Notes: generated by a model from the sequence alone, not told the origin. A stretch of DNA of 64,000 nucleotides from Alphaproteobacteria bacterium (GCA_965205265.1 CBDBGH010000003.1:384001-448000); one strand, 5' to 3'. Shown: positions 37,129-58,247, numbered from the stretch's first letter. Numbers and translations: made by a program.

Positions 37129-37353
37129 ATGCTCGCCAAGCTGACCTCCAAGAACCAGTTGACCCTGCCCAAGGCCGTCACCGCCGCCGTGGACGCCGCC
37201 GAATATTTCGATGTGACCGCCGAGAACGGGCGCATCGTGCTGACTCCGGTCCGCGTCAACCGCGCCGACGGCGTGCGCGCAAAGCTTGCCGAACTCGGGC
37301 TCTCGGAAGCCGACATAGCCGACGCGGTTGCCTGGGCCCGATCCGGGAAATGA
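37129..37353 (+). CDS. AbrB/MazE/SpoVT family antitoxin
   Basis: MLAKLTSKNQLTLPK...GRIVLTPV; ATGA overlap with the toxin start. Confidence 0.9.
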   Translation: MLAKLTSKNQLTLPKAVTAAVDAAEYFDVTAENGRIVLTPVRVNRADGVRAKLAELGLSEADIADAVAWARSGK

Positions 37354-37394
37354 CGCCGGTTCGCCCGGTTCTCGACACAAACGTATTTTGTTGA
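37350..37394 (+). pseudogene. 5' fragment of PIN toxin gene (MTPVRPVLDTNV) cut by the island
   Basis: ATG overlaps the antitoxin stop; VLDTNV motif then a stop; the gene continues at 57829. Confidence 0.88.
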
Positions 37395-37527
37395 ATCCTA
37401 CCGATATAACCTGTTGTATTGAAACAGAACTTTATTTTCATTGCCTTATCCGTAAGCGATCCGGAAGCGGATTGGATTGAATGTCTGCGCAGTCCGGCGC
37501 GGCGCTGTCGGCAGAAACAGCGGGTAA

Positions 37528-38684
37528 TACCAGCGGCTGAGGTTTGAGACTCATTGGGGGATTCCCAAGGAGAGGTGCTTCTGACTCAATGCCGGTTCTG
37601 CGATTGGAGGGTCGGTATGAGGGCAGGGGTCCGATTGAGGGACGATTTCGATGCGGCGCAGTTGCGCGGCCTGGCGCAGCGGAGCCGGGACAGCGCGCAG
37701 ACCCGTCGCCTGCTTGCGCTTGCGGTGATTTACGACGGTGATCGTCGTTCGGACGCGGCGCGCTTTGCGGGCGTGGGCTTGCAGATCATCCGGGACTGGG
37801 TTCTTCGCTTCAATGCGGACGGGCCGGCGGGCTTGAAGGACCGCAAGGCGTCGGGTCCGCCGCGCAAGCTGAGTGCGGAGCAACGCGCGGCGCTTGTGGA
37901 GAGCGGTCCGGATCCGGCGATCCACGGCGTGGTGCGCTGGCGGCGCTGTGAGGTGGCGGCATGGCTCAAGGAGCAGTTCGGCGTCTCCTTGGCGGAGACG
38001 ACGGTCGGGCGGGAGTTGCGCCGGATGGGCTATGCCAAGCTCTCCGCGCGCCCGCGCCACTATGCCCAGGACGAGGCCGCGCTGGCAGCGTTCAAAAAAA
38101 GTTCCCGGACCGCCTGAGGGAGATACGCGCCAGGCTGGACGACGGCGTCGAGGTCGAAATCTGGTGGCAGGACGAAGCCCGCGTCGGCCAGAAGAACAAG
38201 ATCACCCGGCGCTGGGCGAAACGCGGCACAAGACCGTCAGCGCCCAAGGACCAGAGAACGACCTCCGCCTATATCTTCGGCGCCATCTGTCCCAACAAGG
38301 GCAAGGCCGCCGGCCTCGTCATGCCCTACGCCAACACACACGCGCTCAACGCTCATCTCGCCGAAATCAGTCGCATCGTCGAACCCGACGCCCATGCCGT
38401 CGTCATGCTCGACCGGGCCGGATGGCATACCTCCTCCTCTCTCAAAGTGCCCGGCAATATCTCGCTCATGCCGCTCCCACCCCGGGCGCCCGAACTCAAC
38501 CCGGTCGAGAACGTCTGGCAGTTCATGCGCGACAACTGGCTCTCCAACCGCGTCTTCAAAAGCTACGACGACATCCTCGATCACTGCTGCCACGCCTGGA
38601 ACAATCTTGTCTCACAACCGGCGCGCATTGCCTCCATCGGAACCCGAAAATGGGCCGATGGGTTCTAAACTATGCCCGCTGGTA
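37528..38684 (+). mobile_element. IS630 family element; transposase 37617-38668 via -1 frameshift at A7G (38094-38101)
   Basis: TA-CCAGCGG...CCGCTGG-TA ends; HTH orfA; orfB with WWQDEAR, LDRAGWH, PELNPVENVW. Confidence 0.92.
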
Positions 38685-38764
38685 TAACCCTTCGTATCCT
38701 GGGGGATGAGGAGACAGTTATCCGTCCCTTGGCATGTGCACACCCGTCCGAACGCGCCCGGATT

Positions 38765-39061
38765 CGATTCGACCGATTGAGGGTGCGCCGCCAATCTTTT
38801 CGGAGGGATCGGAGCCAGATGTCCTTTTTCGGCTGGGCTCGTTTGGTATGCCGGTCGTATCGCCCGCGCCCCCTGGGTGGCGCCGACGCGGGTTCAGCCC
38901 GACGCCTTGTGGACGGTGCCGGTGTAGCGCGGGGTCTCGACGAAGGTCTCGATGAGCACGGGGGTGATGTTGTAGCGCGCGGTCCAGCCCTCTGGCAGGC
39001 GTCGGCGCACGATGGCGAGGATGTGCGAGCCGAGGTTCGGGATCCGGACCCAAGGCAGGAT
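38765..39061 (-). pseudogene. C-terminal fragment of DUF4338 (DruA-like) domain gene
   Basis: ILPWVRIPNLGSHILAIVRRRLPEGWTARYNITPVLIETFVE..KASG*, then a frameshift before GRGRYDRH..PKKDIWL. Confidence 0.75.
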
Positions 39062-39088
39062 TCGAACCTGCGACCTTCAGGTTATGAG
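39054..39088 (-). other. 3' half of tRNA-Met(CAT), att-site remnant
   Basis: Minus strand CTCATAACCTGAAGGTCGCAGGTTCGAATCCTGCC: anticodon loop to T-arm, no 5' half. Confidence 0.85.
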
Positions 39089-39277
39089 TTTGGTCCCGTT
39101 CTGCGTCTCTCACAAGCTGACGTAAGCTGAAGGATGACAAACGCCTTGTTGGCAGGCATTTCCGGGTTCCCATCATACGCATGCGCCGCCTGAGGTAAGC
39201 TGCGATACGATGCAAAATGTTTGCCAATAGTTTGCCAGTCTGCTAGAACATCCTTCCGGCGTCAAGGATCTTCGGCC

Positions 39278-40588
39278 ATGGCAAACCGCATCCCCAAACT
39301 CACCAAGCGCGCCGTCGAGGCCCTCAGGGCCAACGGCGCCGACACCGTCCACTGGGACGGCGAACTGACCGGCTTCGGTATCCGGGTCCGCAAGTCGGGC
39401 CGGAAGAACTATGTCCTCCAGACACGGGTGCGCGGCAGGCTACGCTGGTTCACCATCGGCCAGCACGGGCGCGTCACCCTGGACGAGGCCAGGGCGGCGG
39501 CGCTGGAGATCCTGGCCCAGACGAAACAGGGCATCGATCCGCGCGAGGCGGAGGCGAAGCGGAAAGCCGAGCCGGTCATGACCGATCTCGGCAGGCGCTT
39601 CCTCGAAGAGTATGTCCGCACCCACTGCAAGCCCAGCACCCAGGGGGAGTACCGCCGGTCGGTGGAACTCTTCATCGACCCCGCGCTCGGCAGGATGAGG
39701 ATATCGGAGGTGGAGCGCAAGGACATCGCCAGGCTGCATTTCGACCTGCGCGACAAGCCCTACCAGGCGAACCGCACGCTGGGCGTGCTCTCGAAGATGT
39801 TCTCGCTCGCCGAGGTCTGGGGATGGCGGCCGGACGGCTCCAATCCCTGCCGTCACGTCAAGCGCTACAAGGAGAACAAGCGCGAGCGGTTCCTCTCGGA
39901 GGCGGAGACCGAACGGCTGGGCGAGGTTCTCCGCGAGGCCGAGGGCGAGATGCCCTCGGCGGTCGCCGCCTTCCGCCTGCTGCTGCTGACCGGCTGCCGG
40001 CTTTCGGAGATCCAGTTCCTGCGCTGGGAGCATGTCAGGGACGACTGCATCGAGCTGCCCGACGCCAAGACCGGCGGGCGGGTGGTGCCGCTCGGACCCG
40101 AGGCCCGCGCCGTGCTGGCGACCCTGCCCCGCGAGGACGGCAACCACTGGGTCATCGCCGGCAAGCTGCCGGACTCCCACATCACCGACCTGCAGAAGCC
40201 CTGGCGGCGCATCCGCGAGCGCGCCGGGCTGGAGGATGTGCGCATCCACGACTTGCGCCACAGCTTCGCCTCGCGCGCCCTGGCGCTGGGCGAGAGCCTG
40301 ACGATGATCGGGAAGCTGCTCGGCCATACGCAGGTGCAGACCACCGCGCGCTACGCGCATCTGGCGCGGGACTCGATCCGGAACGCCGCGGCCCGGATCA
40401 CCGGGAGCATCGGCGGCAATCTGTCCGGAGAGACGCCGGTATTCCGGCCGGCCGCCGCGCCCGAAACGGACCCAGGCGGAGACAGCATCGGGAAGACCGG
40501 CAGCACCGTTTCCGGGCACAGCGCTTCGCCGCCGGCAATCCGGCCGGCCGGCGGCGTCGAGGGAACCGTTCCCGGTCGAACGGAATAG
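39278..40588 (+). CDS. Tyrosine integrase with Arm DNA-binding domain (Int1)
   Basis: WDGELTGFGIRV arm motif; TGCR, KTG, HDLRH, LLGH, TTARY all present. Confidence 0.95.
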   Translation: MANRIPKLTKRAVEALRANGADTVHWDGELTGFGIRVRKSGRKNYVLQTRVRGRLRWFTIGQHGRVTLDEARAAALEILAQTKQGIDPREAEAKRKAEPVMTDLGRRFLEEYVRTHCKPSTQGEYRRSVELFIDPALGRMRISEVERKDIARLHFDLRDKPYQANRTLGVLSKMFSLAEVWGWRPDGSNPCRHVKRYKENKRERFLSEAETERLGEVLREAEGEMPSAVAAFRLLLLTGCRLSEIQFLRWEHVRDDCIELPDAKTGGRVVPLGPEARAVLATLPREDGNHWVIAGKLPDSHITDLQKPWRRIRERAGLEDVRIHDLRHSFASRALALGESLTMIGKLLGHTQVQTTARYAHLARDSIRNAAARITGSIGGNLSGETPVFRPAAAPETDPGGDSIGKTGSTVSGHSASPPAIRPAGGVEGTVPGRTE

Positions 40589-40666
40589 CCGGTCGGCGTA
40601 GGGTGTGGTCATGATGATCGCCGTTCCTGTCCCGGATCGCAGGCGGGCTGCCCGGGGTCCCGCCCG

Positions 40667-41644
40667 GTGAGCCTTCCCGCGACGCCGCACGACGCGCTGT
40701 TCCGGGCGCTGGTCTCCGACCCCGCCCGCGCCGGCGCGCTGCTCGCGGACTACCTGCCGCGGGAGGTCGCCGACCTGCTCGATCCCGACTCCCCGCCGGA
40801 GGCGGTGGAGGGCAGCTTCGTCGATGAGGACGCCGCAAGAACCCAGTGCGACGCCCTCTTCAGGGTCAGGCTCAAGACCGGCGAGGATGCCTTCATATTC
40901 GCGCTCCTGGAGCACAAGAGCTACATCGACGCCGCCACGCCGCTTCAGATCCTGAAATACCTCGCCAGCATCTGGCTCCGCGAGATCGAGGGCGGCGGCG
41001 CCAGGGACAGGCTGCCGGCGATCGTCCCGCTTGTCTTCTACCACGGCCCGGGCACGTGGACCGTGCCGCGCTCGGTGGCGGCGATGATCGACGCGCCCGA
41101 GGAACTGGAGCCGTTCGCCCGGGAGTTCGCCTATGTGCTGCACGACCTGGGCCGGATCGAGCCGCTGCACCTGTCGCGGACGCCGGAGGTCAGGGCCGGC
41201 TTGCTGGCGCTCCGGGTGGTCCATGCCGCGGACATTCCGGCCGACCTTCTCGACCTGATGACCGGCGGACCGATTGACGGGAGCGCGTTCGAGCGGCACA
41301 TTGTGCGCTACATCGCCGAGCGCATGAACCTGACGCCCGTGATGCTGGAGGCGTCGCTGCGCCGGACGAAGCCGGACCGATGGGAGGCGCTGATGGGAAC
41401 CGTCGCCGAAGCCTGGATCGAACAGGGCCGGAGCGAAGGACGGGCGGAAGGACGGGCGGAAGGACGCACCGAGGGCCAGGCCGGGGTCGTTCTGCGCCAG
41501 CTGGAGCTGCGCTTCGGGACTGTGCCCGAGGCGGTGCGCGAGCGGGTTCGCGGCGCGTCGGCCTCCGAACTGGAAGCCTGGGCCGAGGCGGTGCTGACGG
41601 CGGCGAGCCTCGACGAAGCGATGGCCGTCCCGCCCAGCCGCTAA
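40667..41644 (+). CDS. Rpn family (YhgA-like) PD-(D/E)XK nuclease
   Basis: PHDALFR, GSFVDE, LLEHKS, IVPLVFYHG, EGRAEGRAEG repeats, RQLELRFG C-domain. Confidence 0.92.
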   Translation: MSLPATPHDALFRALVSDPARAGALLADYLPREVADLLDPDSPPEAVEGSFVDEDAARTQCDALFRVRLKTGEDAFIFALLEHKSYIDAATPLQILKYLASIWLREIEGGGARDRLPAIVPLVFYHGPGTWTVPRSVAAMIDAPEELEPFAREFAYVLHDLGRIEPLHLSRTPEVRAGLLALRVVHAADIPADLLDLMTGGPIDGSAFERHIVRYIAERMNLTPVMLEASLRRTKPDRWEALMGTVAEAWIEQGRSEGRAEGRAEGRTEGQAGVVLRQLELRFGTVPEAVRERVRGASASELEAWAEAVLTAASLDEAMAVPPSR

Positions 41645-42234
41645 GCCCGCCGGAACAGGACATCGACAGAAAACCGGTCTGGCGCCGGACGGGGTCGCTT
41701 GCCCCCCATGGATCCCGATGAAGGCACGATCGTCGGGGAAACGATGCCGGTCCTTCCCGCCCGCCCCCACGCCGCCGTCGATCACGCGACCGGCAGTCCG
41801 AAAAGGCGAGGTCGTCTCACCTGCCGACGATCGGCAAACCCCCGGTCACACGCAGGTGCAGAGGAACGTGCGCCATGCTCACCTTGAGCGGGATCCGGTG
41901 AAGGTTGCCGCCGCGAGGACCGCGGACAGCCTCGCAGCCGACAGGAATACCCCGCCGGACATTTCCATCGCAGCCTGATCCACGCGGCGCCGACGCGGAC
42001 CGTCAGGACGCCGCATTCCCCAGGCGCCGGCGCACGCGTCCGGTCTCGTCTTCCCTTGCCATCCCGAGCCGACCTTCCGGGTCCCGCGTGCCGCGCCGCC
42101 GGCCTACCGCCGTCTCCATGTCCGCGCCTCGCGCCACCGGGAGGAGAGCCTGGCCGTGAGTGGGGCGGCGGTCGGGGGTCCGGGAGAGGGCGTCCGGCCG
42201 CTGTTTCCCCCCACGGCATGATGGAGACGGCACC

Positions 42235-42558
42235 ATGACGGCAGCCATGGCATTCCCCCGCAACACGGCGAACACCTTCCTGACGCATTTCTTCGGCAGC
42301 GGGCTTTCCGACGACCGCTACGCCGTGGAGCGCTTCCGCGCGATGGTGGACGGCGACATTCGCCGCTGCCCGGACCCGGCGCCCGGCAAGGGCCGGCGCA
42401 AGGCGGGCCATGCCACCGCGACCCTGAAGGCGGTGAAGGAGATGCGCCCCGAGCGCAACGAGATCATCGTCTGCACCGGCCTCGGCAGCCGGGGCGGGGT
42501 CCAGTACTGGGGCGTCTACGCCATGGGGCTCGGTATCGACCGCCGCCAGAAGGGCTGA
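42235..42558 (+). CDS. Hypothetical protein
   Basis: GGAGA RBS, GC3-rich codon usage, 107 aa. Confidence 0.55.
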   Translation: MTAAMAFPRNTANTFLTHFFGSGLSDDRYAVERFRAMVDGDIRRCPDPAPGKGRRKAGHATATLKAVKEMRPERNEIIVCTGLGSRGGVQYWGVYAMGLGIDRRQKG

Positions 42559-42666
42559 CCACCCGCTTCCCGGACGTCCTGCCGGCCCGGCGTCCCCGGC
42601 TCGGGGGCCGGGCCAGGCGGCGGGGCGTCCGCCTTTCCCCTTGTCCCACGAACCGAGGAGGACGGC

Positions 42667-43257: not shown

Positions 43258-44710
43258 GGTCGTGCCCCCAGGCGTGGTGTAGGAGCAGGAGCCACCATCG
43301 GTAGCTGTGGGTAAGTGGCCCGCCGCCGCGACCGTGTGGAGTGTGGCGGCGGCGGGCCACTTATCCATAGCGGATGGCCATCGCGGTGCCGGTTAGGGTT
43401 GGGCTTCTACAGTCCATCCGACCGGAGGAGTACCACGATGACCACCAAGGACATGATGACCCTGCAGGCGCTTTTGGAGAAGAGTTCGGACGCCGATCTG
43501 CTTCGCGAGATGATCGGGTTCACGGCCGAGCGTTTGATGGCGCTTGAGGTGGAGGGCCTTGCGGGAGCCGCACACGGCGAGCGTTCGCCGGACCGGCTCA
43601 CCCATCGCAACGGCTACCGGGACCGGGTCTGGGAGACGCGCGCGGGCACGGTGGAGTTGAAGATCCCGAAGCTGCGCAAGGGGAGCTGCTTCCCGGGCTT
43701 CCTGGAGCCGCGTCGCATGGCGGAGAAGGCGCTGACGGCGGTGATCCAGGAGGCCTACATCAAGGGCGTGTCGACCCGCTCGGTGGACGACCTGGTGCAG
43801 GCCATGGGCATGTCGGGCATCTCGAAGAGCCAGGTGTCGCGGCTGTGCGGTGAGATCGACGGCAAGATCCGCGACTTCCTCGACCGCCCGCTGGAGGGTG
43901 ACTGGCCGTATCTGTGGCTGGACGCGACCTATGTGAAGATGCGCGAGGCCGGGCGCGTCGTCTCGGTCGCGGTCACGATCGCGGTGGCGGTCAACGACCA
44001 GGGCCGCCGCGAGGTGCTCGGCATGGCGGTCGGCGCGTCCGAGGCCGAGACCTTCTGGACCTCCTTCCTGCGCTCCCTGGCCCGCCGCGGCCTGCGCGGC
44101 GTCAAGCTGGTCGTCTCCGATGACCACAAGGGCCTGAAGGCGGCTGCAACGCGCGTCCTCGGCGCCACATGGCAGCGCTGCCGCGTCCACTTCATGCGCA
44201 CCCTGCTCGCCCATGCCGGCAAGCAGGGCCGGCGCGTCGTGTCCGCCTTCGTCACCACCGCCTTCGCCCAGGAGGATGCAGACAGCGCCTCCGCCCAGTG
44301 GCGCCAGGTCGCCGACCAGCTCAGGACCAAGGCGCCGAAGCTCGCCGCTCTCATGGACGAGGCCGAGCACGACGTTCTCGCCTACATGACCTTCCCGGCC
44401 GCGCATCGCCCCAAGCTGCACTCGACAAACCCGCTCGAACGACTCCATGGCGAGATCAAGCGGCGCACCAACACCGTCGGCATCTTCCCCAACGAGAACG
44501 CCATCACACGCCTGATCGGCGCCATCCTGCTCGAGCAGAACGACGAATGGGCCGTCCAGAGGGCCAGATACATGACGCTGGAATCGATCGCTCCCGTGAG
44601 CGACAATGCAACCGTCAAGCTGCCCGCCGTGGCAGCCTGAGCCTACCGGCCCTTCCCGCCGGATACCGCGACGGCCGCCAGGCTCTTACACCACGGCTCG
44701 GGACACGATC
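43258..44710 (+). mobile_element. IS256 family element (transposase 43438-44640)
   Basis: Imperfect 29-bp TIRs GGTCGTGCCCCCAGGCGTGGTGTAG / rc GATCGTGTCCCGAGCCGTGGTGTAA; [25 protein letters not shown]; flanks not duplicated. Confidence 0.94.
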
Positions 44711-45375
44711 GCCGCTTGTCGCGCGCGAAGTGCCGTTCATGCGGTCGCCAACAACGGGACGGCCCGCTGGCCGGATCGACCTTGTTGTGTCCGCCGACGA
44801 CGCTGCATCGGTCTGGTACGGGCTGGAAATCCAAGCTGTCTACTTCTCCGGCCCGGCCATGCAGTCCGATTTCACGCGGTTGCTCGCGTCTACAGCAACC
44901 GTCCCGCCCGCACCTGCGGCAGTTCGTCGTCCCGACTGGCGTTCGTCGAGCGCAAAGCGCCTGATGCCGCAGTTACAGATCAAGGCTCCGACACTGCGAC
45001 GGTGGGGAACGAAACTCGCGGTGGCCGTCGATCTGCCGTTCTTCAACGCGATAGGCGGGCCGTCAGACAATCCCTCGCGCGACCTGGACGATGGCGACAT
45101 CGTTTGGCTGATCCTATAGCGCGACAATCTGGGTGAGAGCCGCGCGTCAATCAGGATGAGATTCCCCGGCGGCATCGGCGAGTTGATGATTGTCGCGCGG
45201 GGCGCGGATTGCAAGCGGTTTCGGATTTTGATTGTCGCGGCGCGACAAACAAGGTTTTCGGAGAGCGTTTTGATTGTCGCGGGGGGGCCGTCGGGTCGGA
45301 GAAGAGACGGCCCGCGGAGGCGATTCCCGCGGGCCGTGAGTGTTGTGGCCGCTGGGCCGATCTGGCGGCAGCGGT

Positions 45376-47723
<2,348 letters not shown>

Positions 47724-48061
47724 CTACTCGGAAAAACGTCACCGTTCGCCCAGCCGACCGACCCCGCCAGAAGGTCCAGGAAAAATTTTTTGAGGCGGCG
47801 GCCCGGAACTCCGGTCGGGCTACGCCCTCCCTCCGTTCCGGGCCGCCGCCTTCCCCCGTCTCATCCTGATTGTCGCCAGCGTCTCAAGCTGATTGTCGCG
47901 CCGCAGATCCCGCGCATAGACGACGATTCCCGGCTCGTGGCGCACCATTGGGAAGTGCTGTCGCTTGAGGCGTCCAGCGACAAGCTGCTGTCCGCTGAAA
48001 CCGTGCGGCGGCGCGAATTCGAGGAAGCGTTGCGTGCGAAGCTCGAACCGTTGGAGACAGG

Positions 48062-49012: not shown

Positions 49013-49558
49013 TCAACGCCCCGCCCGTCGCGCGGCCTCCTCGACCCATTCGCCGAGATCGTTCACCCGGTTTGACCAGTTGCCGGCCGGCTCCCAAGTG
49101 TAGGTCATGAAGCGCTCGCTGGCCTTCTGTGCGAGCACATACCCCATTGTGTTCCTGAAAGGCGGTATCTTGTGCTTATCCAGCGGGTTTGCTGGCCGGA
49201 GAATTGCATCAAGAACCGGGCCGGGAACTGCGCTCTGATGGTCCTTCGACTTGCGCAATTTGTGGACGTAAACGCCGAGAAGGCCCATGCCGTTGGCGAT
49301 GGATTCCTTGATCTCGAAGTTGACCCATCTGCTCCGGTGGGTGGCAGCGCCGATCAGAACGCACGTGACCGAGCACCCGTGCATCTGCTTTCGGATCCAG
49401 TTCCTAATGGCGGCGTCACCGGTTCGCCTGACTTTCTCGTACTCCGCCTTGTCCCGGAAGCCCGAGCGCGGCTCGCCGATGAATCTGCCCGAGTTGCGGA
49501 CCTGGTTGACGCGCCATACGTCGTCGTAGTCGAAACTGAAGAAAACGATTCTGGTCAT
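49013..49558 (-). CDS. Thoeris ThsB-like TIR domain protein (DUF1863)
   Basis: VFFSFDYDDVWRVNQVRN, IRNWI..SVTCVLIG..T..SRWVNFEI with catalytic Glu; ends WVEEAARRAGR. Confidence 0.9.
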   Translation of the reverse strand: MTRIVFFSFDYDDVWRVNQVRNSGRFIGEPRSGFRDKAEYEKVRRTGDAAIRNWIRKQMHGCSVTCVLIGAATHRSRWVNFEIKESIANGMGLLGVYVHKLRKSKDHQSAVPGPVLDAILRPANPLDKHKIPPFRNTMGYVLAQKASERFMTYTWEPAGNWSNRVNDLGEWVEEAARRAGR

Positions 49559-49568
49559 CGGTGCAGCC

Positions 49569-49761
49569 CTATCCAGATCTGAGAATCGGCGCATGCGGCG
49601 CCTGTAGTAAGGCTGCGGGGCCGCACTCGCTGCCGAGGGCCGCCACCGCGACCAGGACGAGAGCGAGCAAGGCTCCGTAGAAGAATACCAGGGTACGGGA
49701 GAACGTCGCGCCTCGCCAGCTATGGCGCAGGGATCCCCGGTACGCGCGGACATCCATGGAA
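49569..49761 (-). pseudogene. C-terminal fragment of a membrane protein upstream of TIR, cut by IS21
   Basis: SMDVRAY..SW..FSRTLVFFYGALLALVLV begins exactly at the IS21 end. Confidence 0.55.
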
Positions 49762-51318
49762 TGCGCGTTTCAGTAAGTCCCGGCCGGTGATTACGGAAAG
49801 TCCCGGCCGGCGATTTCAGTAAGTCCCGGCCGGCGATTCCGGAAAGTCCCGGCCGGCATGACCGGGGCGATTTGAGTTCGGCTTTCGGGTGCGCCGACTC
49901 GGCGTCTACCCCCTGGCATTTTGCCGGGGGGTGGCATGCCGGGACGGAAGCAGACGAGACGAACGACAGTGAAGGACGTCAGGGCGATCCTGCGGCTGAG
50001 CCATGGGCAGGGTCTGTCGGAGCGCGAGGTCGCGGGGCGGCTGAAGCTCTCCAGGGCGACGGTGTCGACCTATCTTCTTCGGGCCCGGGAGGCGGGCCTG
50101 TCGAGCTGGCCGCTGCCGGCGGTCTACGAGGACGACGCGGTGCTGGAACAGTTGCTGTTCCGGCGCATGGGCCGCCCGCCGCGGGATACGCGCCAGCCGC
50201 ACTGGCCGACGGTGGCGGCCGAGCTGAAGCGCAAGGGCGTGACGCTGAGCCTGCTGTGGCAGGAATACCGGGCCGCGCATCCGGACGGCTACGGCTATAC
50301 CTGGTTCTGCGACGCCTTCAGGGCCTTCGAGCGCCGCACGCATGCGAGCTGGCGCAACCGGCACGAGGCCGGCGCGGTGATGCAGACCGACTATGCCGGC
50401 CAGACGGTCGAGATCGTCGATCCCGAGACCGGCGAGATCCACGAGGCGCAGATCTTCGTCGCGGTGCTCGGCGCCTCGTCCTACACCTTCGCGACCGCGA
50501 GCCTGACGCAGCGCCTGCCGGACTGGATCGCTGGGCAATGCGAAGCGCTGGCCTTCTTTGGGGGCGTGCCGAAAAGCATTGTCTGCGACAACCTGAAGGC
50601 GGGGGTGGCGAAGCCGCTCTGGTTCGAGCCGACGCTGAACGCGACCTTCGCGGCGCTGGCGGAGCACTACGACACCACCGTCCTGCCGACGCGGCCCCGA
50701 AAACCCCGGGACAAGGCGAAGGTCGAGGTTGGCGTGCAAGTGGTCGAGCGCTGGATCCTGGCCCGCCTCAGGAACCGGCGCTTCTTCTCCCTCGGGCAGC
50801 TCAACGCGGCGATCCGCGTCCTCCTGGACGAACTCAACGACCGGCCCATGCGCCATCTCGGCCAGAGCCGGCGCCAGATGTTCGAGGCCATCGAGCGCGC
50901 CGCGCTGGCGCCGCTGCCGAAGACCCCCTTCGAATACGCCGAGTGGAAGACCGCGAAGGTCCACCCCGACTACCATGTCGATGTCGAGCGCACCTTCTAC
51001 TCGGTCCCTCACAGCCTGATCGGGCGCACGGTTCGGATCCGCCTCACCCGGCGCACGGTCGAGGTCTTCCATAGCCACAGGCGCGTCGCCGCCCATGCAC
51101 GCCGGTCTCCCTATGGCGGGCATGTCACCGTTGCCGCTCATATGCCCAGCGCGCATCGCCGCTATGCCGATCGCACCCCGGCAAGCCTGATCGGCAGGGC
51201 AAGACGCATCGGCCCCAACACGGCCGTGCTGGTCGAGCGCATGATGCGCGACAGGCCGCATCCCGAGCAGGGCTATCGAAGCGCCATGGGCGTCATATCG
51301 CTCTCCCGGCGATACGAG
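49762..51318 (+). mobile_element. Truncated IS21 family element (istA from 49936, C-terminus and istB missing)
   Basis: TG end with four AAGTCCCGGCCGG repeats at 23-bp spacing; QTDYAG, CDNLK, DKAKVE motifs. Confidence 0.9.
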
Positions 51319-52135
51319 TGTCGGTGATTATCATAAAGGGCGCATATTTGCTGGCGTAGCGCGCTTTTGTGGTGCGCACGACAAACAGCGTGAGACAGGC
51401 GCGGCCGGGTTTATGACGGGGGCCGAGGACGGAAGGAGGGCGTAGCCCGACCGGAGTCCTCGGCCCCCGTCGCGTTGAGATTTTCGCCTCCCGGAGGGCG
51501 GCGACGTCCTGGCGACCGGGTTGGCCGTTCCCGGGCTGCGGCAGGGGGTAGACTGGGGCTTCTGAGAACGATGCGGCGCCGGCCCCGTTGGCTTGGTGGC
51601 AACGACCGGCGCCGCACCCCCCGAGCCATGCAAGGCGCGGCCCGGAAGCGCAGTATCGTGCGCGTCCGGGCGTGGGTCCACCCCGTTCTCATCGGTCGCG
51701 ATGAGGAACGCCGCCCGCCTGTTCACCTGCGCCCTGTGCCGCCGCCAGGTGGTTCTCTGCCGGCGCTGCGACTCTGGCCATATCTACTGTTCGCCGCGTT
51801 GCAGCGGGCGGGCGCGGCGTCGGTCGGTGCGCCTTGCGGGGCAGCGCTACCAGAACAGCCGCCGGGGCCGTCACAAGCATGCCGAGCGCCAGCGGCGCTA
51901 CCGCGAACGGCGCCGTGTGCGGCAGCCGGCAGTTCGGGCCATCGCGCAGAAAGTGACGCATCACCCTTTGACCGTCGCGCGCCGGCGTCCTGATGTGGCG
52001 CGCATACCGGCGGGGCGGTCCGGAACCCGGCCCTTCGGGCCCGACCGTCCCGCCCGGGTGTTCCGCTGCGAGCGCTGCGGTCGGTTCTGCGGCCTGGCGG
52101 TCTATCCGGGCCTGCGCCAGGCGCGAAGGGCCGGC
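51319..52135 (+). mobile_element. Left end of a third IS21-type element with its Cys-rich leader ORF (from 51701), truncated
   Basis: TGTCGGTG end cuts the previous istA; ORF CALC..LCRRCDSGHIYCS..RYQNSRRGR..KVTH. Confidence 0.6.
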
Positions 52136-53140
52136 CATGACGGCGTGGCTGGCCACGGTGTGGCGCAGGTCGTGCAGGCGGAGCCTGCCGAGGCCGGCGT
52201 CGGCGCAGACGGTGCGCCAGCACAATACCAGGCTGTCGGCCCTTCTTCCTTCGGCGTATCGCGGAAACACGAAATCGCTCGGTTCCCGCGCACCGGGCAG
52301 GGTCTCGATCAGCGCCCGCGCGGCCTCGCCGAGCGGCACGGCGCGGGGGCCGGTCTTGGCATCCTCAAGGTTCAGGGCCCTGGCTCCGACGTTCCGCCAG
52401 CGCAGGTTGAGGACCTCGCCCCGGCGGCATCCGGTGAGGGCCAGCAGGCGGATGGCGGCGACGGCCTCGGGCCAGCGGCCTTCGTGCGCATCGAGCGCGC
52501 GCCCGAGCCGGGCGAGCTCTCCGGTGTCGAGGAAGCGGGCGACGTTGCGCCTCGGGTTCTTCGCGATGCCGAGGCAGGGGTTGGAGCTGCGCTCGCGCAA
52601 TCCCCACTCCTCGGCGCGGAACATCATGGCGCGGAGGATCTCGAAGGCGCGGTTGGCCGCGCCGGGCCTGTCCCTGCTCGCGGCGTCGAACCACGCGGCC
52701 ACGTCCTGCGCGTCGATGCGGTCGAGCGGCATCCTGCCGAAGACGGGCAGGATGCGGGCCTTGAGATAGATGCGCACGGTCCTGCGCCCGGAGGGCTTCC
52801 AGTGCGGTTCCGAGCGCCGCAGGTATTCCCCGGCGAACTGGCGGAAGCTCGGGGTCTCCTTCTCCCTGCGGATGTCGTCGGCGGGGTTGCCGCCCGCGCG
52901 GATGCGGGCGAGCATGTCGCGGGCGCGGCGGCGGGCCTCGACGAGGTCCATCTCGCCGTGGCGGGCGACGACGATGCGGCGGCTCCGTCCCTCGATGCGG
53001 GCCTGCACGATCCAGACCTTGCGGCCCGAGGGGTGGATGCGCAGCCCGAAGCCGGGCAGCGACCTGTCGAACAGGATCGTGTCCTTCGGGCCGGGTGCGG
53101 CGTCGCGGGCCAGCTTCGCGGTAAGGTCAACCCTTGGCAT
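52130..53140 (-). pseudogene. Arm-domain tyrosine integrase (Int2), lacking the catalytic His/Tyr end
   Basis: FDRSLPGFGLRI, TGCR, HDLRH; homology stops at HAVMAG. Confidence 0.88.
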
Positions 53141-54317
53141 GACCGCACCCTCCCTCATGCTCCGCGCCGCTACCGGCCAGGGCCGCATGGATGCGGTTCG
53201 ACACCCGGTCGGCGGCGTCCGTGACCGACTGGTCGGACAGATGGACATAGCGCTCTGTGGTCTCGACCAGGGCGTGACCGAGCAGCTTCGCGATGGTCAC
53301 CATGTCCACCCCGTTCATGGCGGCGACCGAAGCCCAGCTGTGTCTGAGATCGTGCAGCCGCAGGCCGGGCAGTTCGGCCTCGCTGCGGATGCGGTGCCAC
53401 TGGTACTCGATGTTGTCTACGTGCCGCGTCGGCGGACGCGCCGGAAAGAGATACGGGCAATCCGCGCTGTATCGCGGGATGGCGTTGATCACGATCCGCG
53501 CGGCACTGGACAGCCAGACCGTGCGCGGGCCGGACTTGGCATCGGGCAAGTGGATGCGCTTGCCCCTGATCCAGTCCCATTCGAGGGAGACAATCTCGCC
53601 GAAGCGGCATCCGGTGAGCATCAGCAGGCGGACGATGGCGACGACATGGGGACACCGGAACTCGTCGCGGGTGAGCACGGCGTTGAGCCGGGCCATCTCG
53701 TCCGCCGTGAGGAACCGCTCCTTCGGCTTCATCCTGTAGCGGCGGGTCCGCTTGCAGGGGTTGGTGTTGTGGGCGCGGTATCCCCAGAGTTCCGCCATGC
53801 GCATCATCACCGACAGCACGGGCATGGTCCGGTTGGCGACGCCGGGCCTGTTCGCCATGGAGGCGAACCAGCGCCTCACGTCGTCGGCCTCGATGGCGTC
53901 CACGGTCATGTGCCCGAAGGCGGGCAGGATGTCCTTGCGCACGATGCGGGCGTTGGTCTCCAGGGTCCTGGACTTCCAGTGCCGGGCATGGCGTTCGAGG
54001 AACTCCCCGGCGAAGGCGTCCATCGGGTGGCCGGGCATCTTCGGCCCGTTGTCCTTCCTCGTCGGCTCGATGAAGCTGGCGATGAGCCTGCGGGCCTCGC
54101 GCCGCGCCTCGGGGACGGTCATGGCGTCGGCGTCGCCGATCCGGGCGTAGCGTCTCTTCCCGCGCGCCATGCGGGCAAGGAAGAATGTGCGGGTTCCGGT
54201 GGGCTGGATCGAGACGGCGAGGCCGCTCACCACGTCGTCGCGGACTTCGTACTTCCCGGCTCGGGGTCTGGCGGCGCGGAGGCGCCGGGCGAAGGTGGAC
54301 TTCGGCTGGTCGTTCAT
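53127..54317 (-). CDS. Arm-domain tyrosine integrase (Int3)
   Basis: TGCR, KSG, HDLRH, LLGH, TTERY; stop overlaps the Int2 start by 14 nt. Confidence 0.94.
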   Translation of the reverse strand: MNDQPKSTFARRLRAARPRAGKYEVRDDVVSGLAVSIQPTGTRTFFLARMARGKRRYARIGDADAMTVPEARREARRLIASFIEPTRKDNGPKMPGHPMDAFAGEFLERHARHWKSRTLETNARIVRKDILPAFGHMTVDAIEADDVRRWFASMANRPGVANRTMPVLSVMMRMAELWGYRAHNTNPCKRTRRYRMKPKERFLTADEMARLNAVLTRDEFRCPHVVAIVRLLMLTGCRFGEIVSLEWDWIRGKRIHLPDAKSGPRTVWLSSAARIVINAIPRYSADCPYLFPARPPTRHVDNIEYQWHRIRSEAELPGLRLHDLRHSWASVAAMNGVDMVTIAKLLGHALVETTERYVHLSDQSVTDAADRVSNRIHAALAGSGAEHEGGCGHAKG

Positions 54318-54741
54318 GGTCGCGGCTCCCTGTTCGGGCCGCGTGGCCGACTGGTAGTCCAGGAAGCGGCCGCGGCGGCGTTTCGTCGGGGAAGCCGCGC
54401 GAAGGCGCGGGAGAGGCTGAACCGTAACGCCCTGTAGTTACAGGGCTTTCCTCCGGTTCATGCGAAGGCGGGCGCTGGCAGGATTCGCACCACGGGTGCG
54501 GAGGGTGTGACGCGCAAACCGCCGCATGGCGTAGAAAACCGGCACTCCGCTCACGCATCCGCGAAGTGCTGAAAGCGCAGCTGCAGCAACGGCTTGCAGC
54601 CCGCGCGGCGTTTGAGCGCAGCACTTCCGACCCTTCCGATCTTCGAGCCCGCCGCCGTTACCCGGCGTGTCCTGGGTGTTCCCCAACGGGGGCGCCCGAG
54701 ATGCGCCGGTCGCGACCGGAACGAACGGAAGGGATCGGACA

Positions 54742-54926
54742 ATGGCCAACAGAACAAAGACCACGATGGCGGGCGCTCGCGCCTTCGCCGCTGCCGACGG
54801 GCGCGAGGCCGTGCTGTGGGACAGTATCGCGCCGGGGCTCGGACTGCGGGCGCGACCGAACGGACGCAAGACATGGATCGTGCATCGGCGCTGCAACGGC
54901 TCTGTCGTCAAGCGGACGCTCGGCAC
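54742..54926 (+). pseudogene. Integrase Arm-domain fragment (Int4)
   Basis: AVLWDSIAPGLGLRARPNGRKTWIV..KRTLG, cut by an IS21 end. Confidence 0.8.
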
Positions 54927-54990
54927 TGCGGCGCGACAATCAGCTTGAGACGCTGGCGACAATCAGGATGAGACGGGGGAAGGCGGCGGC
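54927..54990 (+). mobile_element. Solo IS21 end matching the istA-proximal end of the 45115-47905 element
   Basis: TGCGGCGCGACAATCAGCTTGAGACGCTGGCGACAATCAGGATGAGACGG is the reverse complement of ~47842-47905. Confidence 0.9.
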
Positions 54991-55031
54991 GGTCGCCGCG
55001 GAGATGCGCGCCGCGCCGGCGCGGCCGGCGG

Positions 55032-56237
55032 TCATGGCGCGGGACACGGAGGATCGGTCTCGCCCGCCAGGTCGGCGCGGAGGCTCTCGGCGACGCGCGC
55101 CGCCGACGCCTTCACCGAATCGCGCGCGAGATGGGCGTAGCGCGCCGTGGTCTGCACCTTCCGATGGCCGAGCATCCGGCCGATCATCGGCAGGCTCTCG
55201 CCAAGCGCCAGAGCGCGCGAGGCAAAGCTGTGCCTGAGGTCATGGATGCGGACGTCCTTCAGGTCCGCGCGGACCCGCACCGCGAGCCAGGCGTTGTTGA
55301 GGTTGCTGAGCCGCGCGCCCGGCCTCGCTCCGGAAATCACCCAGGGATTGTCCGGCAGGCGCGGTATCCCGGCAAGCACGCGCCGCGCCGCCGGCGAGAA
55401 CGCGACCGAACGCGCGCCGGTCTTCGCGTCGCGCAACCTGATCTCGCCCGCCTCGAGGTCCACATCGGCCCAGCGCAGCGTCAGGACCTCGTTGCGCCGG
55501 CACCCGGTGAGCATCAGCAGGCGGAACGCCGCCACCGCGCTCGGATGCACCCTGCCCTCGGCCTCGACCGCGTCGAGCGTGCGCCCGAGGCGCCGGAACT
55601 CCTCATCGGAGAGGAAGCGCTCGCGGCTCTTCTCCCGATACTTGCGCACGAACCGGCACGGATTGCCGCCCTCCGACGTGATCCCCCACAGCTCGGCCAT
55701 GCGGAAGAGGCGCGAGAGCATGTCCAGGACCCTGTTCGCCATCGCCGGCGTCTCGTGCAGGCTGTAGTGCAGCGCCGCGACGCGTTCGCGGCCGATCTCC
55801 CCGAGGCGCACCGGGCCGAGCGCGGGCAGCAGGTGCCTGTCCAGGACATGCCGGCAATGGCGCACCGTGGTCGGCTTGCAGCGCACCTTGACGTGCTCCG
55901 TCATGCAGCGCTCCGCCACCTCCGCGACCGTGGGGCCGGCGTCCGCCGGGGCCGCACCGCCGTCGGGCGCCGGCTCCCTGCCGGCCTTGAGGTCGGCGAT
56001 GATGCGCGCCGCCTTCGTCCGCGCCCGGTCCGCCGTCATCAGCCCGTGACGCCCGACGGTCAGCCGGCGCGACCTGCCGCCCGCCCGCGTCTGCACGAGG
56101 TAGACCTTCGAACCGCTCGGATACACGCGGACCCCGAAGCCCTGAAGCTTCGAATCCCAGTGGACCGTCTCGCGCTCACCCACCGGCAGCGCCTCCACGG
56201 TCCGGCGCGAGATCCGCTGTGCGTTCAGCTTCGTCAT
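55032..56237 (-). CDS. Arm-domain tyrosine integrase (Int5)
   Basis: WDSKLQGFGVRV, TGCR, KTG, HDLRH, MLGH, TTARY. Confidence 0.95.
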   Translation of the reverse strand: MTKLNAQRISRRTVEALPVGERETVHWDSKLQGFGVRVYPSGSKVYLVQTRAGGRSRRLTVGRHGLMTADRARTKAARIIADLKAGREPAPDGGAAPADAGPTVAEVAERCMTEHVKVRCKPTTVRHCRHVLDRHLLPALGPVRLGEIGRERVAALHYSLHETPAMANRVLDMLSRLFRMAELWGITSEGGNPCRFVRKYREKSRERFLSDEEFRRLGRTLDAVEAEGRVHPSAVAAFRLLMLTGCRRNEVLTLRWADVDLEAGEIRLRDAKTGARSVAFSPAARRVLAGIPRLPDNPWVISGARPGARLSNLNNAWLAVRVRADLKDVRIHDLRHSFASRALALGESLPMIGRMLGHRKVQTTARYAHLARDSVKASAARVAESLRADLAGETDPPCPAP

Positions 56238-56274
56238 CGTCCGCTCCCGGCTGTCCCCGTGTCCGTCGCGCCCG

Positions 56275-57459
56275 TCACGGATCCGTCCGCTCCGTGAGGA
56301 TGTCGGCGCCGATGCTGTCGGCGACCCTCGCCGTCGACGCCTGCACCGACTCCCGCGCAAGGTGCGCGTAGCGGGCCGTGGTGTCGATCTTCCGGTGACC
56401 GAGCAGTTCGCCGATCATGCTCAGGCTCTCGCCGAGCGCGAGCGCCCTGCTGGCGAAGCTGTGGCGCAGGTCGTGAAGGCGGACGCCGTCGAGGTCCGCG
56501 TGCCTGCGGATGCGGTCCCAGGCATCGTTGATGTTGGTCTGGTGAGTACCCTTCTTCCGCCCCGGGAACACCCATGGATTGCCGGCGACGCGCGGCAGTG
56601 CCGCCAACACCGCGGCCGCCGCGGGCGGCATCGGCACGATGCGCGCGCCGGTCTTGCTGTCGGCGAACCGCATCTCGCCCGCCTCGAAGTCGAGGTCGTC
56701 CCAGGCCAGCCCCATGATCTCGTTGCGCCGGCACCCGGTCAGCACCAGCAACCGGATCGCCGCCGCCGAGTGACGGGAGGCGAGACGCTTCGCGGGGGCA
56801 ATGTCGAGCGTGCGTCCGAGCCGTGCGAGTTCCCCGGACGTCAGGAACCGCTCCTTCCGGGGGGCCACCTTGTAGCGGGGCACCGACCGGCAGGGGTTGC
56901 GCCCCGGCGGACGCATCTCCCAGAGTTCCGCCATGTTGAACATCTTCACCAGGATGTCGACGCACCGGTTCGCCACCGTCGGCATGCCGCTCAGACCGAA
57001 CTGGAACGCGAGGATGTCCTTGCGCGCCACCTGCGACACGGGATGCGCTCCCAGGCCCGGCACGATGTGCTTCTTCAGCATCAGGCCGTAGTGCCTGATC
57101 GTATTCGGCTTGCAGTGCATGGCGACGTATTCGCGCTCGTAGCGCTCGGCCAGATCGGCCACGGTCGGCGCGGGTTCGGTCTCCGGCTCGACAGGCGGCA
57201 ATCCGGCCTTGATGCGCGCAAGCAGCTTCGCCGCCTCCCTGCGCGCCTCGGCGGGCGCGATGTCCCCGTGCCGGCCCACGGTCGCGCGGACCGACCTGCC
57301 CTTCGCACGGGCCTGCGCCACATAGACCTTGCGCCCCGTGGGGTAGACGCGAATCCCGAACCCCGGCAGTTCGCTGTCCCAGAACACGCCGTCCTTTCCG
57401 TTGACCGCGAGACGGTCCACGATACGCTTGGTAAGCGTTCGGTGCTGGCGTTCGGGCAT
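56275..57459 (-). CDS. Arm-domain tyrosine integrase (Int6), adjacent to attR
   Basis: WDSELPGFGIRV, TGCR, KTG, HDLRH, LLGH, TTARY. Confidence 0.95.
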   Translation of the reverse strand: MPERQHRTLTKRIVDRLAVNGKDGVFWDSELPGFGIRVYPTGRKVYVAQARAKGRSVRATVGRHGDIAPAEARREAAKLLARIKAGLPPVEPETEPAPTVADLAERYEREYVAMHCKPNTIRHYGLMLKKHIVPGLGAHPVSQVARKDILAFQFGLSGMPTVANRCVDILVKMFNMAELWEMRPPGRNPCRSVPRYKVAPRKERFLTSGELARLGRTLDIAPAKRLASRHSAAAIRLLVLTGCRRNEIMGLAWDDLDFEAGEMRFADSKTGARIVPMPPAAAAVLAALPRVAGNPWVFPGRKKGTHQTNINDAWDRIRRHADLDGVRLHDLRHSFASRALALGESLSMIGELLGHRKIDTTARYAHLARESVQASTARVADSIGADILTERTDP

Positions 57460-57815
57460 GTCCTCGTTCCTCCACCGGGGCGCGAAAGCGTTCGTTCAAG
57501 GTGTGACGATGATGAGGACGACGAGGCCAATTCCGTGGTTTGCCGGGCTTCGCCCGACTTCGCTCTGTGCCATCGTCCCCTCCATCAACGCATGACCGAA
57601 CGCTTTCCCGGGGCGCTGGAAGCCGGTTCGGGCTCGGACGCAGGTCACGTAAGCGGACCGAAAGCGACCGGCTGGAAATCGGGGCGCATTGAAGCGCATC
57701 CGGGGCAGGGATGCAAGGACGGAGATGGGCGATCAGACACACAAATATAGAGAATTGACAATGGTTTATATCAGAAGAGCGCATCCGGGCGCATGCGAGG
57801 CAAGGTAGACAAAAA

Positions 57816-58247
57816 TTGAGTTGTCTTTTCGACACGAACGTCCTGCTGTCGGCGCTGCTGTTCCATTCCGGCGCACTTTCGTGGCTGCGCGCCGCCTGGC
57901 GCTCCGGCGACATCCGCCCGCTCGCCAGCCGGGAGACCGCGGCCGAACTCGTCCGTGTCCTCGCCTATCCGAAATTCGGGTTGGACGCCGAGGAGCGGCG
58001 CGACCTGCTCGACGACTATCTTCCCTTCTGCGAGACGGTCCCCGTGCCGGATCCGCCGCCGGCGGTTCCCGAATGCCGCGACCCTTCCGACCGCCCGTTC
58101 CTGGAACTGGCGCTGGTCGGGCGTGCCGACGCGCTGGTGACCGGCGACGCCGACCTCCTGGCGCTCGCGGGCGCGTTTCCCGTGCCCCTATTGCTGCCCG
58201 CCGGCTTCGGGCGGAGACTGTCCCGCGGCGAAGAAGCGGAGCGGTAG
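57816..58247 (+). CDS. PIN-domain toxin, 3' body (with an island-supplied TTG start)
   Basis: DTNVLLSAL, ELVRVLAYPKF, CRDPSDRPFLELA, LVTGDADLL. Confidence 0.88.
   Translation: MSCLFDTNVLLSALLFHSGALSWLRAAWRSGDIRPLASRETAAELVRVLAYPKFGLDAEERRDLLDDYLPFCETVPVPDPPPAVPECRDPSDRPFLELALVGRADALVTGDADLLALAGAFPVPLLLPAGFGRRLSRGEEAER

Follow-up and report, generated by a model that had tools for sequence, protein, structure and literature searches.

The question raised by this locus is what kind of DNA has come to lie inside a toxin gene, how its place there was chosen, and what has become of the gene. We analysed a stretch of 64,000 nucleotides from Alphaproteobacteria bacterium (GCA_965205265.1, CBDBGH010000003.1:384001-448000), which is called here the window. 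In this stretch a toxin gene of the PIN superfamily, preceded by its antitoxin gene in a toxin-antitoxin (TA) operon, is split at the codons of the catalytic Asp-Thr-Asn-Val motif by an insertion of 20,457 bp, counted from the start of one junction core to the start of the other. The answer that we favour, with a probability of about 0.85, is a site-specific integrative element whose attachment site attB is the DNA encoding the first beta-strand and the catalytic Asp of PIN toxins, and which lands in many PIN genes and rebuilds the open reading frame (ORF) of the toxin. This answer is carried by what was observed at the junctions and at the empty sites, by the repeated use of independent PIN targets, by the specificity of one integrase clade, by the conserved surrogate N-terminus given to the toxin and by the presence of a conserved integrase pair (Int5 and Int6).

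The split operon, its junctions and its uninterrupted sites

The antitoxin gene and the PIN start overlap by ATGA, both in the window and in the intact operon of a related genome (G009). A small upstream antitoxin gene overlapping a gene that encodes an N-terminal PIN domain with the Asp motif is the organization of a type II TA operon. The antitoxin gives only faint profile matches, which do not reach the curated cut-offs (PF04014 MazE_antitoxin, E 0.0022; TIGR01439 AbrB, E 4.7e-4). A perfect 9-bp inverted repeat localized about 30 nt 5' of the antitoxin start is a putative operator of the operon, by its position (Table 1). At the other side of the insertion, the frame read from position 57829 gives DTNVLLSALLFHSG... 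and matches PIN_3 (PF13470, E 5.6e-21) and also PIN (PF01850); the chimeric PIN ORF reaches 52.3 bits with TIGR00305, for a cut-off of 29.15.

Both junctions contain the sequence TCGACAC(A/G)AACGT, in which TCGACAC is common, the next base is A at the left junction (attL) and G at the right junction (attR), and AACGT is again common. A first-pass annotation of the window, made from the sequence alone, had placed an island in the DTNV motif of a PIN gene resuming 20,457 bp further on, and had noted that TCGACAC is common to the repeats, which diverge at the base after it. The ORFs, the cores and the PIN_3 match confirm the first statement, and the second is also correct, the further shared AACGT having received no stress at that time.

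In a shuffle control of the 13-mer core with up to 2 mismatches, 2 matches were found in the window for 2.15 expected, that is to say no enrichment. Both core matches are exact, and by a rough estimate about 0.004 exact 13-mer matches would be expected in 64 kb. Since the control is uninformative at up to 2 mismatches, the context of TCGAYACNAAYGT was counted instead throughout the 5.7-Mb genome. This sequence occurs 10 times, each time encoding D-T-N-V in frame, either where a PIN-like ORF starts or where an island joins the chromosome (four junctions). Six PIN genes with the exact TCGAYACNAAYGT are unoccupied (contig G000:C3 of this genome, positions 1077139, 1349288, 1677673, 2032290, 2260345 and 5171645) and are candidate free landing sites. 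The PIN ORF at 5171645 has only 53 aa; a copy of an insertion sequence (IS) of the IS21 family starts about 140 bp downstream of the motif (5171786), which by arithmetic is near the place where the ORF would end.

An uninterrupted form of the locus was found in G009, a genome of the same genus. On its contig C145, the left flank is matched with 91% identity over all 1672 queried bases and is directly continued by the right flank, with 93% identity over 414 bases. The junction there reads ...MTPVRPVLDTNVLLSALLFHS..., the neighbourhood is the same and the downstream neighbour is on the same contig. Because this contig holds the two PIN halves uninterrupted, they are halves of one gene; their origin from two different PIN genes, a possibility raised with the first-pass annotation, was checked and is set aside. 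The existence of this site agrees with the earlier proposal that precise excision would rebuild the operon. In two further genomes (G012 and G015), the matches to the antitoxin and to the PIN gene are 13-16 bp apart, which fits an intact operon located elsewhere in those genomes. Many relatives possess the same flanking genes with the operon absent between them. A contig of 675 nt from the sponge metagenome run X1 matches positions 37186-37384, from the antitoxin gene to the end of the core, and continues with 476 nt unlike the island, as an empty site in another sample might; neither this contig nor the depth and habitat labels of low-share runs were used as evidence.

The genome that contains the window possesses a second copy of the element. 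Its Int6 gene is 99% identical (C3:3282731-3283912) and has the same neighbour Int5. At its right end, 348 bases are 98% identical to the window copy up to the core; after ...TTGAGTTGTCTTTTCGACACGAA the sequence passes, at the identical base, into another PIN gene, MSCLF-DTNVASQLMRPAP... (PF01850, E 4.4e-15). Its left end is 97% identical and sits behind a FitA-like ribbon-helix-helix (RHH) antitoxin (PF22513, E 3e-20) and the stub MFVLDTNVFC*. The FitA/VapC operon split by this copy is intact on contig C60 of G009, so that a precise empty site is found in a related genome for both copies. A metagenome-assembled genome (MAG), G041, contains five Int6 copies and five left ends. What precedes each left end is a stub ending in DTNVFC* and, before it, an antitoxin that differs from one end to the next (Phd/YefM-like, two RHH, AbrB-like and one other). 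The four right ends fetched from this genome (L001-L004) are identical up to TTTTCGA and are followed by four different PIN genes. The ending DTNVFC* is thereby seen at 6 attL junctions further to that of the window.

The crossover could be delimited by comparing 7 attL junctions (window, second copy and five from G041) with 6 attR junctions taken from the same subclade. In front of TCGA(C/T)AC, the base is variable at attL (7/7), as expected of chromosomal DNA, and is always T at attR (6/6), where it is derived from the element. The base that follows is always A at attL, derived from the element, and is G or C at attR, of chromosomal origin. These origins of the flanking bases restrict the exchange to TCGA(C/T)AC, 7 bp that would represent the overlap of the integrase; the earlier suggestion of a 7-bp crossover is borne out by these 13 junctions. 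In a likely pair of ends (L077 and L002), a T replaces C at the fifth position of both junctions, possibly the product of a heteroduplex within the overlap.

A motif of 19 nt, CGTAAGCGNNNCGRAAGCG, has exactly two sites in the window, both on one strand, for 0.01 expected. One site lies 79 nt inside the left end (CGTAAGCGATCCGGAAGCG, 37451-37469) and the other 181 nt inside the right end (CGTAAGCGGACCGAAAGCG, 57648-57666), and the right arms of other members of the clade contain strings that look similar. These motifs are candidate arm-type binding sites for the PF13356 domains of the integrases. With an integrase at one end and attL and attR, which are direct repeats with imperfections, at both, the insertion has the form of a genomic island.

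These data bear on two other explanations. According to the first, the 20.4-kb block grew by accretion of ISs and island remnants, and the repeat at its ends arose by chance or as the target-site duplication of a transposon. Most of the block does consist of IS630, IS256, IS21 and other ISs, together with three unrelated integrases, and the 13-mer is not in excess in the shuffle control with up to 2 mismatches. However, the G009 site lacks the whole block precisely; both ends are common to the second copy and to the G041 copies, always with an antitoxin and a stub on one side and a PIN remainder on the other; and the repeat is imperfect as attL/attR hybrids would be, unlike a duplication. We regard this explanation as very improbable: it is contradicted for the outer boundaries and remains true as a description of the interior. 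The 20.4-kb island of the first-pass annotation is to be amended in the same sense, its outer boundaries being retained and its interior being mostly unrelated mobile-element debris.

The second explanation considers the PIN genes as cargo, a stabilizing toxin carried at the end of the element, and not as its target. Mobile elements often carry TA modules, and the PIN ORF always adjoins the integrase. Against this, integrases that are 99-100% identical and have identical ends are nevertheless followed by six different PIN genes beyond the same base, and the antitoxin with the first codons of the same toxin stands at the opposite end. The two empty sites of G009, with their uninterrupted operons, contradict the cargo explanation, to which we give hardly any credence.

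PIN genes next to related integrases

The genome survey used one genome per species and returned 56 loci, of which 30 have an integrase at least 63% identical to Int6 and 27 of these a usable upstream flank. Eighteen of the 27 have a PIN gene at the motif: a PIN ORF verified with Pfam starts at D-[T/P]-[N/D/H]-[V/I] and is read away from the integrase, its distance upstream of the integrase start being 138-380 nt. Five loci (L007, L014, L022, L034 and L037) have kept the element end, beyond which lies either a truncated stub or sequence other than PIN. At one locus, L030, the C-terminal part of a PIN_3 domain lies beside a 5'-truncated integrase, and the last three (L017, L024 and L025) are without any PIN arrangement. 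Metagenome contigs provided 14 loci with an identity of at least 64%, 10 of them with a flank; seven of the 10 abut a PIN ORF at the motif, and the six junction ORFs tested with Pfam are all PIN. A full-length PIN domain was found in 24 of the 26 Pfam-tested junction ORFs from other genomes, the exceptions being L100, which runs off its contig, and L030, with its C-terminal part.

The target PIN proteins are 14-33% identical to that of the window, except for L013 (66%). At such identities they are mostly different genes and not one orthologue. A quick maximum-likelihood tree places all PIN-adjacent integrases in one clade of 28 rows with an SH-aLRT value of 100, and the PIN arrangement was found in 0 of the 15 examined loci with an identity to Int6 of 55% or less. 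The same genome also contains three tandem integrase pairs that are 50-56% identical to Int6 (G000:C3:3800290-3803650, 5433600-5436958 and 5322400-5325587). Their right-arm DNA is 83-85% identical to that of the window, and their ends adjoin other genes, not PIN; one of these ends, as read from the translation, abuts the 3' end of a Dam-like methylase gene. As integrase pairs of about 55% identity are not associated with PIN, the targeting of PIN is specific to the clade, and the two-integrase layout seems to belong to a wider family with several target specificities. In all, the genome holds 44 integrase-like matches at E<=1e-10.

The use of the PIN Asp motif as attB by one integrase clade, as had been proposed for this locus, is well supported by the two empty sites and by more than 25 junctions with different PIN genes. 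According to the record titles, the integrases that are 68-78% identical come from Alpha- and Gammaproteobacteria, Bryobacterales, Binatia, Syntrophobacterales and others.

Some loci depart from the common arrangement. At L014 (2464-2808, minus strand), the element end is followed by a PIN-like start of 20 residues (DTNVLVSDLMSPYG...), which continues, without a change of frame, as a Phd/YefM antitoxin domain; a deletion may explain it, or a second event at a TA locus. At L022 and L034, element-type ends (MYLIDTNG... and ..AIDTF..) run into non-PIN ORFs, one of 322 aa and one transposase-like by eye, which may be off-target insertions or later rearrangements. At L094 and L095 (about 1490-1505), just 7 nt separate the PIN Asp motif from the place where the integrase match begins, at residue 5 of Int6; the right arm in its entirety and the opening codons of the integrase are absent. 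A search with the left end of the window in G042 and G043, the genomes of L005 and L020, gave two weak matches in G042 (72-80%), not placed by the motif, and no match in G043; the left ends of other subclades are thus unmapped.

The toxin frame at the right end and the integrase pair

At the right end of the window copy, the element closes with the 15 bases TTG AGT TGT CTT TTC (57816-57830) in front of the Asp codon, that is to say an in-frame start codon and hydrophobic codons. Other subclades have at the same positions ATG AGT TTT CTT CTA, GTG ATG TAT TTA CTG, GTG TAT CTA ATC, ATG CTT ATC CTA and others. An in-frame ATG, GTG or TTG followed by three to four hydrophobic codons precedes the Asp at 18 of 20 foreign junctions, at L026 and at both copies of this genome. 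These surrogate N-termini exist in at least 10 DNA versions that encode the same kind of peptide (MSCLF, MSFLL, MYLL, MFLL, MYLI, MLIL and others), and the native stubs at attL look alike (MFVL-D, MILL-D, VIAL-D and MTGYLI-D). As the element supplies a start and hydrophobic codons, the PIN frame stays open and is rebuilt, not destroyed. This element-supplied new 5' end in front of an open target ORF resembles the 5'-end replacement of dusA-type islands rather than an off switch of the toxin. We infer from the sequence that the rebuilt toxin may be expressed and functional, and that the element or its host might draw some benefit from it.

The antitoxin is intact at all 7 attL sites seen, and integration certainly separates the toxin from its promoter, from its putative operator and from its antitoxin. 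The first-pass annotation had considered the locus as a case of regulated gene integrity or of a penalty on excision. On such a reading the inserted element keeps the toxin silent until excision reconstitutes and activates it, be it for a developmental switch or as a punishment for losing the island. The separation just described, the absence of any promoter-like site found upstream of the rebuilt ORF and the restoration of the operon that precise excision would bring are in its favour. Classical regulated-gene-integrity elements interrupt genes without repairing them. Here, the start and hydrophobic codons, present at 18 of the 20 foreign junctions and encoded by 10 or more DNA versions, are hard to explain for a dead gene, and 24 of the 26 Pfam-tested junction ORFs from other genomes still encode a full-length PIN domain. 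Moreover, excision restores the toxin together with its antitoxin, that is to say a normal non-toxic operon from which no obvious penalty is expected. The switch or penalty is therefore not supported, and we consider it unlikely.

The preferred reading remains an integration that rebuilds the PIN ORF, and the following course of events can be proposed. The attB consensus would be ...hydrophobic-D-T-N-V, with the DNA sequence TCGAYAC-N-AAYGT. The right end carries Int6 next to the att site and then Int5, and recombination would take place within TCGA(C/T)AC, presumably catalysed by this pair. At attL, the antitoxin gene would be left behind with a toxin stub of 10-14 codons; at attR, the remainder of the toxin would be fused to the start codon and the three to four hydrophobic codons of the element. 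Since many PIN paralogues have the motif, one genome could offer the element many loci, and hosts belonging to several phyla would be open to it. The window copy would have entered an AbrB-like/PIN_3 operon and would have been filled later by IS630, IS256, IS21, other ISs and remnants of other islands.

Int5 and Int6 both display the architecture of P4-like phage integrases. The Pfam matches are PF00589 (E 9.8e-26), PF13356 (E 3.6e-10) and PF14659 (E 3.5e-6) for Int6, and PF00589 (E 1.4e-18), PF13356 (E 1.8e-11) and also PF22022 for Int5. An Int5-like gene is found 10-70 nt downstream of the Int6-like gene in nearly every locus of the clade with enough sequence. The two proteins are about 52% identical to each other, and the pair diverges in step, with identities to the pair of the window of 99/97, 82/80, 77/80, 73/69 and 66/61%. 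The motifs LTGCRRNE, KTG, HDLRHSFAS, LGH and TTARYAHL are invariant in 10 Int6-like and 10 Int5-like sequences; we take them to contain the catalytic residues R, K, HxxR, H/W and Y, respectively. Int5 and Int6 are then two distinct and catalytically intact recombinases that co-occur and co-diverge as in a Xer-like pair. They represent a conserved tandem pair and not two stacked island remnants. Since the same two-gene layout exists in other, non-PIN clades of this genome, this layout predates the targeting of PIN. No curated NCBIfam family fits Int5 or Int6, all matches, including those to Xer models, being far below the cut-offs.

A more extended proposal, which we regard as rather doubtful, is that Int5 and Int6 would form an obligate heteromeric integrase of the XerC/D type, in which one subunit reads the invariant Asn-Val half-site and the other tolerates the variable half-site made of the first codons of the toxin. 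The PIN superfamily would thereby serve as attB for spread within a genome and across phyla, and the element, which would provide a new start and a new upstream region, would take control of the captured toxin, the antitoxin staying under the control of the host. If this is true, each insertion rewires a TA module and ties the dosage of the toxin to the state of the element.

Several points weigh against integration at the PIN motif as we read it. In the second copy, about 69 kb separate the two ends, which have opposite orientations (G000:C3:3214998-3215154, minus strand; 3281433-3284291, plus strand), possibly after a rearrangement, this genome having more than 30 copies of IS21, and both ends are colinear on one contig in only one of the five G041 copies; such mismatched ends require rearrangements, or assembly errors in repeat-rich MAGs. 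The window copy itself is heavily decayed and may no longer move. No attP-like junction, excised circle or tandem copy was found in the assembly or in any fetched locus. The public runs were examined as assembled contigs, which drop rare forms, and this bears on the missing excised circle. No intact PIN gene is present at the junction in 9 of the 27 genome loci and 3 of the 10 metagenome loci of the clade. The related loci are kin, so that the counts are not independent events. The tree is a quick version whose careful search was unfinished; L025, L030, L031, L037, L041, L049 and L052 were dropped from it as short, and L053-L056 were never included. A simple scan of 57380-57900 found no sigma-70-like promoter or terminator (0 found), and thus no support for expression of the rebuilt toxin. 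Finally, no homologue with an identity of at least 60% was detected among the PLSDB plasmids (5 records, the best at 44.8%), and no relative in IMG/VR.

Interior of the window copy and related systems

The features of the window copy are given in Table 1.

Table 1. Features of the split PIN operon and of the inserted element, with positions counted from the first nucleotide of the window.
Feature	Position	Strand	Evidence
Perfect 9-bp inverted repeat, GTAAGGAAA / 5-nt spacer / TTTCCTTAC; putative operator	37079..37101	.	Read from sequence
Antitoxin gene, 74 aa, AbrB/MazE-like, intact; keeps native promoter region at attL	37129..37353	+	
PIN 5' stub MTPVRPVLDTNV, two element codons and stop (FC*); ORF MTPVRPVLDTNVFC*	37350..37394	+	Translation
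attL core TCGACACAAACGT (TCGACAC-A-AACGT); probable 7-bp overlap 37372-37378	37372..37384	+	
Left-end backbone, first part	37385..37524	+	97% to left end of second copy; 96-97% to five G041 left ends
IS630-family IS in left arm, TA at both ends	37525..38685	+	Helix-turn-helix and DDE_3 ORFs 37554-38117 and 37961-38668, two frames; Pfam
Left-end backbone, second part, remnant of DruA-like (PF14236) gene	38686..39053	-	97-98% to second copy and G041:C17
tRNA-Met(CAT) 3' fragment, att remnant of a different, nested island	39054..39088	-	35/36 bases match tRNA-Met of the same genome
Int1, integrase of nested tRNA-type island remnant, outside PIN clade	39221..40588	+	PF00589, PF13356
Transposase_31 (YhgA/Rpn-like) gene	40667..41644	+	PF04754, E 6.8e-42
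IS256-family (Mutator) IS	43258..44710	+	PF00872, E 9.5e-119; 99% identical copy elsewhere in genome
IS21-family IS, istA 46212-47711, istB 45376-46215	45113..47906	-	IstB PF01695, E 5e-65; terminal inverted repeats
ThsB-like TIR-domain gene between ISs, possible defence gene	49013..49753	-	PF08937, E 4.3e-22
Further IS, rve and Mu-transposase C-terminal domain	49762..51318	+	Pfam; three other copies, 99.7-99.9%
812-bp repeat element, at more than 15 other genome sites; cuts off 3' end of Int3	51318..52130	.	
Int3 (truncated, ORF 51689-53248) and Int4 (53127-54317), distant clade, 38-39% to Int6	52131..54317	-	Pfam; tree, outside PIN clade
Solo IS21 end, exact 65-nt inverted copy of 47842-47906	54926..54990	.	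Inverted repeat, 100%
Int5, second tyrosine recombinase; longest ORF to 56360, alignable protein from near 56219	55032..56219	-	Pfam
Int6, att-proximal tyrosine integrase (arm-binding, SAM-like and catalytic domains); defines PIN-targeting clade	56275..57459	-	Pfam
Right arm, with arm-like motif and surrogate start	57460..57828	+	98% to second copy up to core
Chimeric open PIN_3 ORF, 143 aa; element MSCLF and chromosomal DTNVLLSALL...	57816..58247	+	ORF list, translation, PF13470
attR core TCGACACGAACGT (TCGACAC-G-AACGT)	57829..57841	+	

The window copy is a decayed mosaic in which about 3.4 kb of backbone are left in all, the left side contributing about 0.5 kb and the right side 2.85 kb. Only three stretches are common to the second copy and to G041:C17 (37372-37527, 38685-39057 and 54979-57838). 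A form free of IS630 is found in contigs of the runs X20 and X23, which join 37524 to 38685 (TA..TA), and the second copy and G041 are contiguous at this place. The DruA-like ORF is complete in G041 (E 1.3e-32), the corresponding ORF of the window being without Pfam match. Concerning the nested island, ARAGORN detected no whole tRNA in the window; Int1 groups in the tree with L035, whose flank holds a tRNA 3' end. The contigs of all four public runs pile up and break at 39054/39088.

Among the ISs, IS21 is present in more than 30 genome copies with identities of 88-100%, and the IS at 49762-51318 has 23-bp terminal tandem repeats (49768-49857). The match of Int3 to the catalytic domain ends at position 151 of the 172 of the profile. 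The solo IS21 end, an inverted copy of the end of the complete element 7 kb away, marks the inner edge of the right backbone, identity with the second copy starting at 54979; this arrangement suggests a rearrangement or a deletion mediated by IS21.

The colinear copy of G041 has a length of about 34.8 kb and contains DruA-like, SSB, YspA/SLOG, ankyrin/FGE-sulfatase and S24/LexA-like genes and two IS66; the S24/LexA-like gene, for a repressor, adjoins the integrases. Because the copies differ in gene content, the cargo is variable. No conjugation or virion genes were found among the ORFs tested. As vehicles, hitchhiking on plasmids was rejected from the lack of a PLSDB homologue with at least 60% identity, and a phage origin from the lack of an IMG/VR relative.

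To our knowledge, known integrases target one orthologous site (tRNA, tmRNA, dusA, guaA etc.). Two traits of the present element are unusual: a target that is paralogous, defined by a motif and present in multiple copies, and a conserved tandem pair of catalytic integrases. Its landing site is set by the protein-level conservation of an active-site motif that is common to dozens of paralogous and dispensable toxin genes. Targeting of such a motif would explain the five island copies of one genome and the occurrence of integrases with 68-78% identity in varied taxa. An orphan antitoxin followed by a tiny PIN stub, on one hand, and a PIN gene with an odd N-terminus beside an integrase, on the other hand, are then to be seen as the two halves of one event, and TA loci as landing pads that mobile elements rewire. 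The pair of P4-like integrases represents a testable model of asymmetric site recognition, and such integrases could give multi-site insertion in hosts with PIN genes. In the full texts searched, no report of an integrase targeting PIN or VapC was found; a prior listing in Mageeney et al. 2020 or in the TIGER/Islander tables is possible.

Several known systems share some of these traits. The P4-like tRNA islands, one of which is nested at 39054-40588, have the same domain architecture, an integrase next to the att site and a copy of the displaced gene end; unlike them, the element described here has a protein-coding catalytic motif as target, replaces the 5' and not the 3' end and possesses two recombinases. 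RIT and GInt elements contain three consecutive tyrosine recombinases of distinct subfamilies, whereas by these definitions the present element has two conserved genes, both P4-like. XerC and XerD, acting at dif, are likewise two paralogous and catalytically competent tyrosine recombinases used together. Tn554 encodes its paired tyrosine recombinases TnpA and TnpB side by side on a site-specific mobile element. In contrast with XerC/XerD and Tn554, both recombinases are here P4-like with arm-binding domains, and their action as a heteromer is only hypothesised.

Examples of regulated gene integrity are the skin/sigK and nifD elements. As in these, an integrative element lies inside a coding gene that precise excision restores; unlike these, the interrupted ORF is repaired by the element and is not clearly inactivated, and it has no known developmental context. 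The concept of regulated gene integrity is named in PMC12424338. In an integrative and conjugative element of Neisseria, attP exploits the DNA uptake sequences (PMC7371117). The apparent adaptation to a short sequence present many times per genome is similar here; the uptake signal is non-coding, whereas the repeated sequence of the PIN genes stems from the conservation of an active site at the protein level.

The dusA islands characteristically replace the 5' end of their target, and it was proposed that they restore its first beta-strand (Farrugia et al. 2015, PMC4482086). With these islands, the present element shares a tyrosine integrase, insertion at the conserved 5' end of a protein-coding gene, an element-encoded replacement of this end and imperfect direct repeats. 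The target gene is not dusA, the genes at the junctions being PIN genes by Pfam. Compared with the dusA islands, the target is here a multi-copy and non-orthologous toxin superfamily instead of one housekeeping gene, with several copies of the element per genome; the integrases are a conserved pair with P4-type arm-binding domains, and the toxin is uncoupled from its antitoxin.

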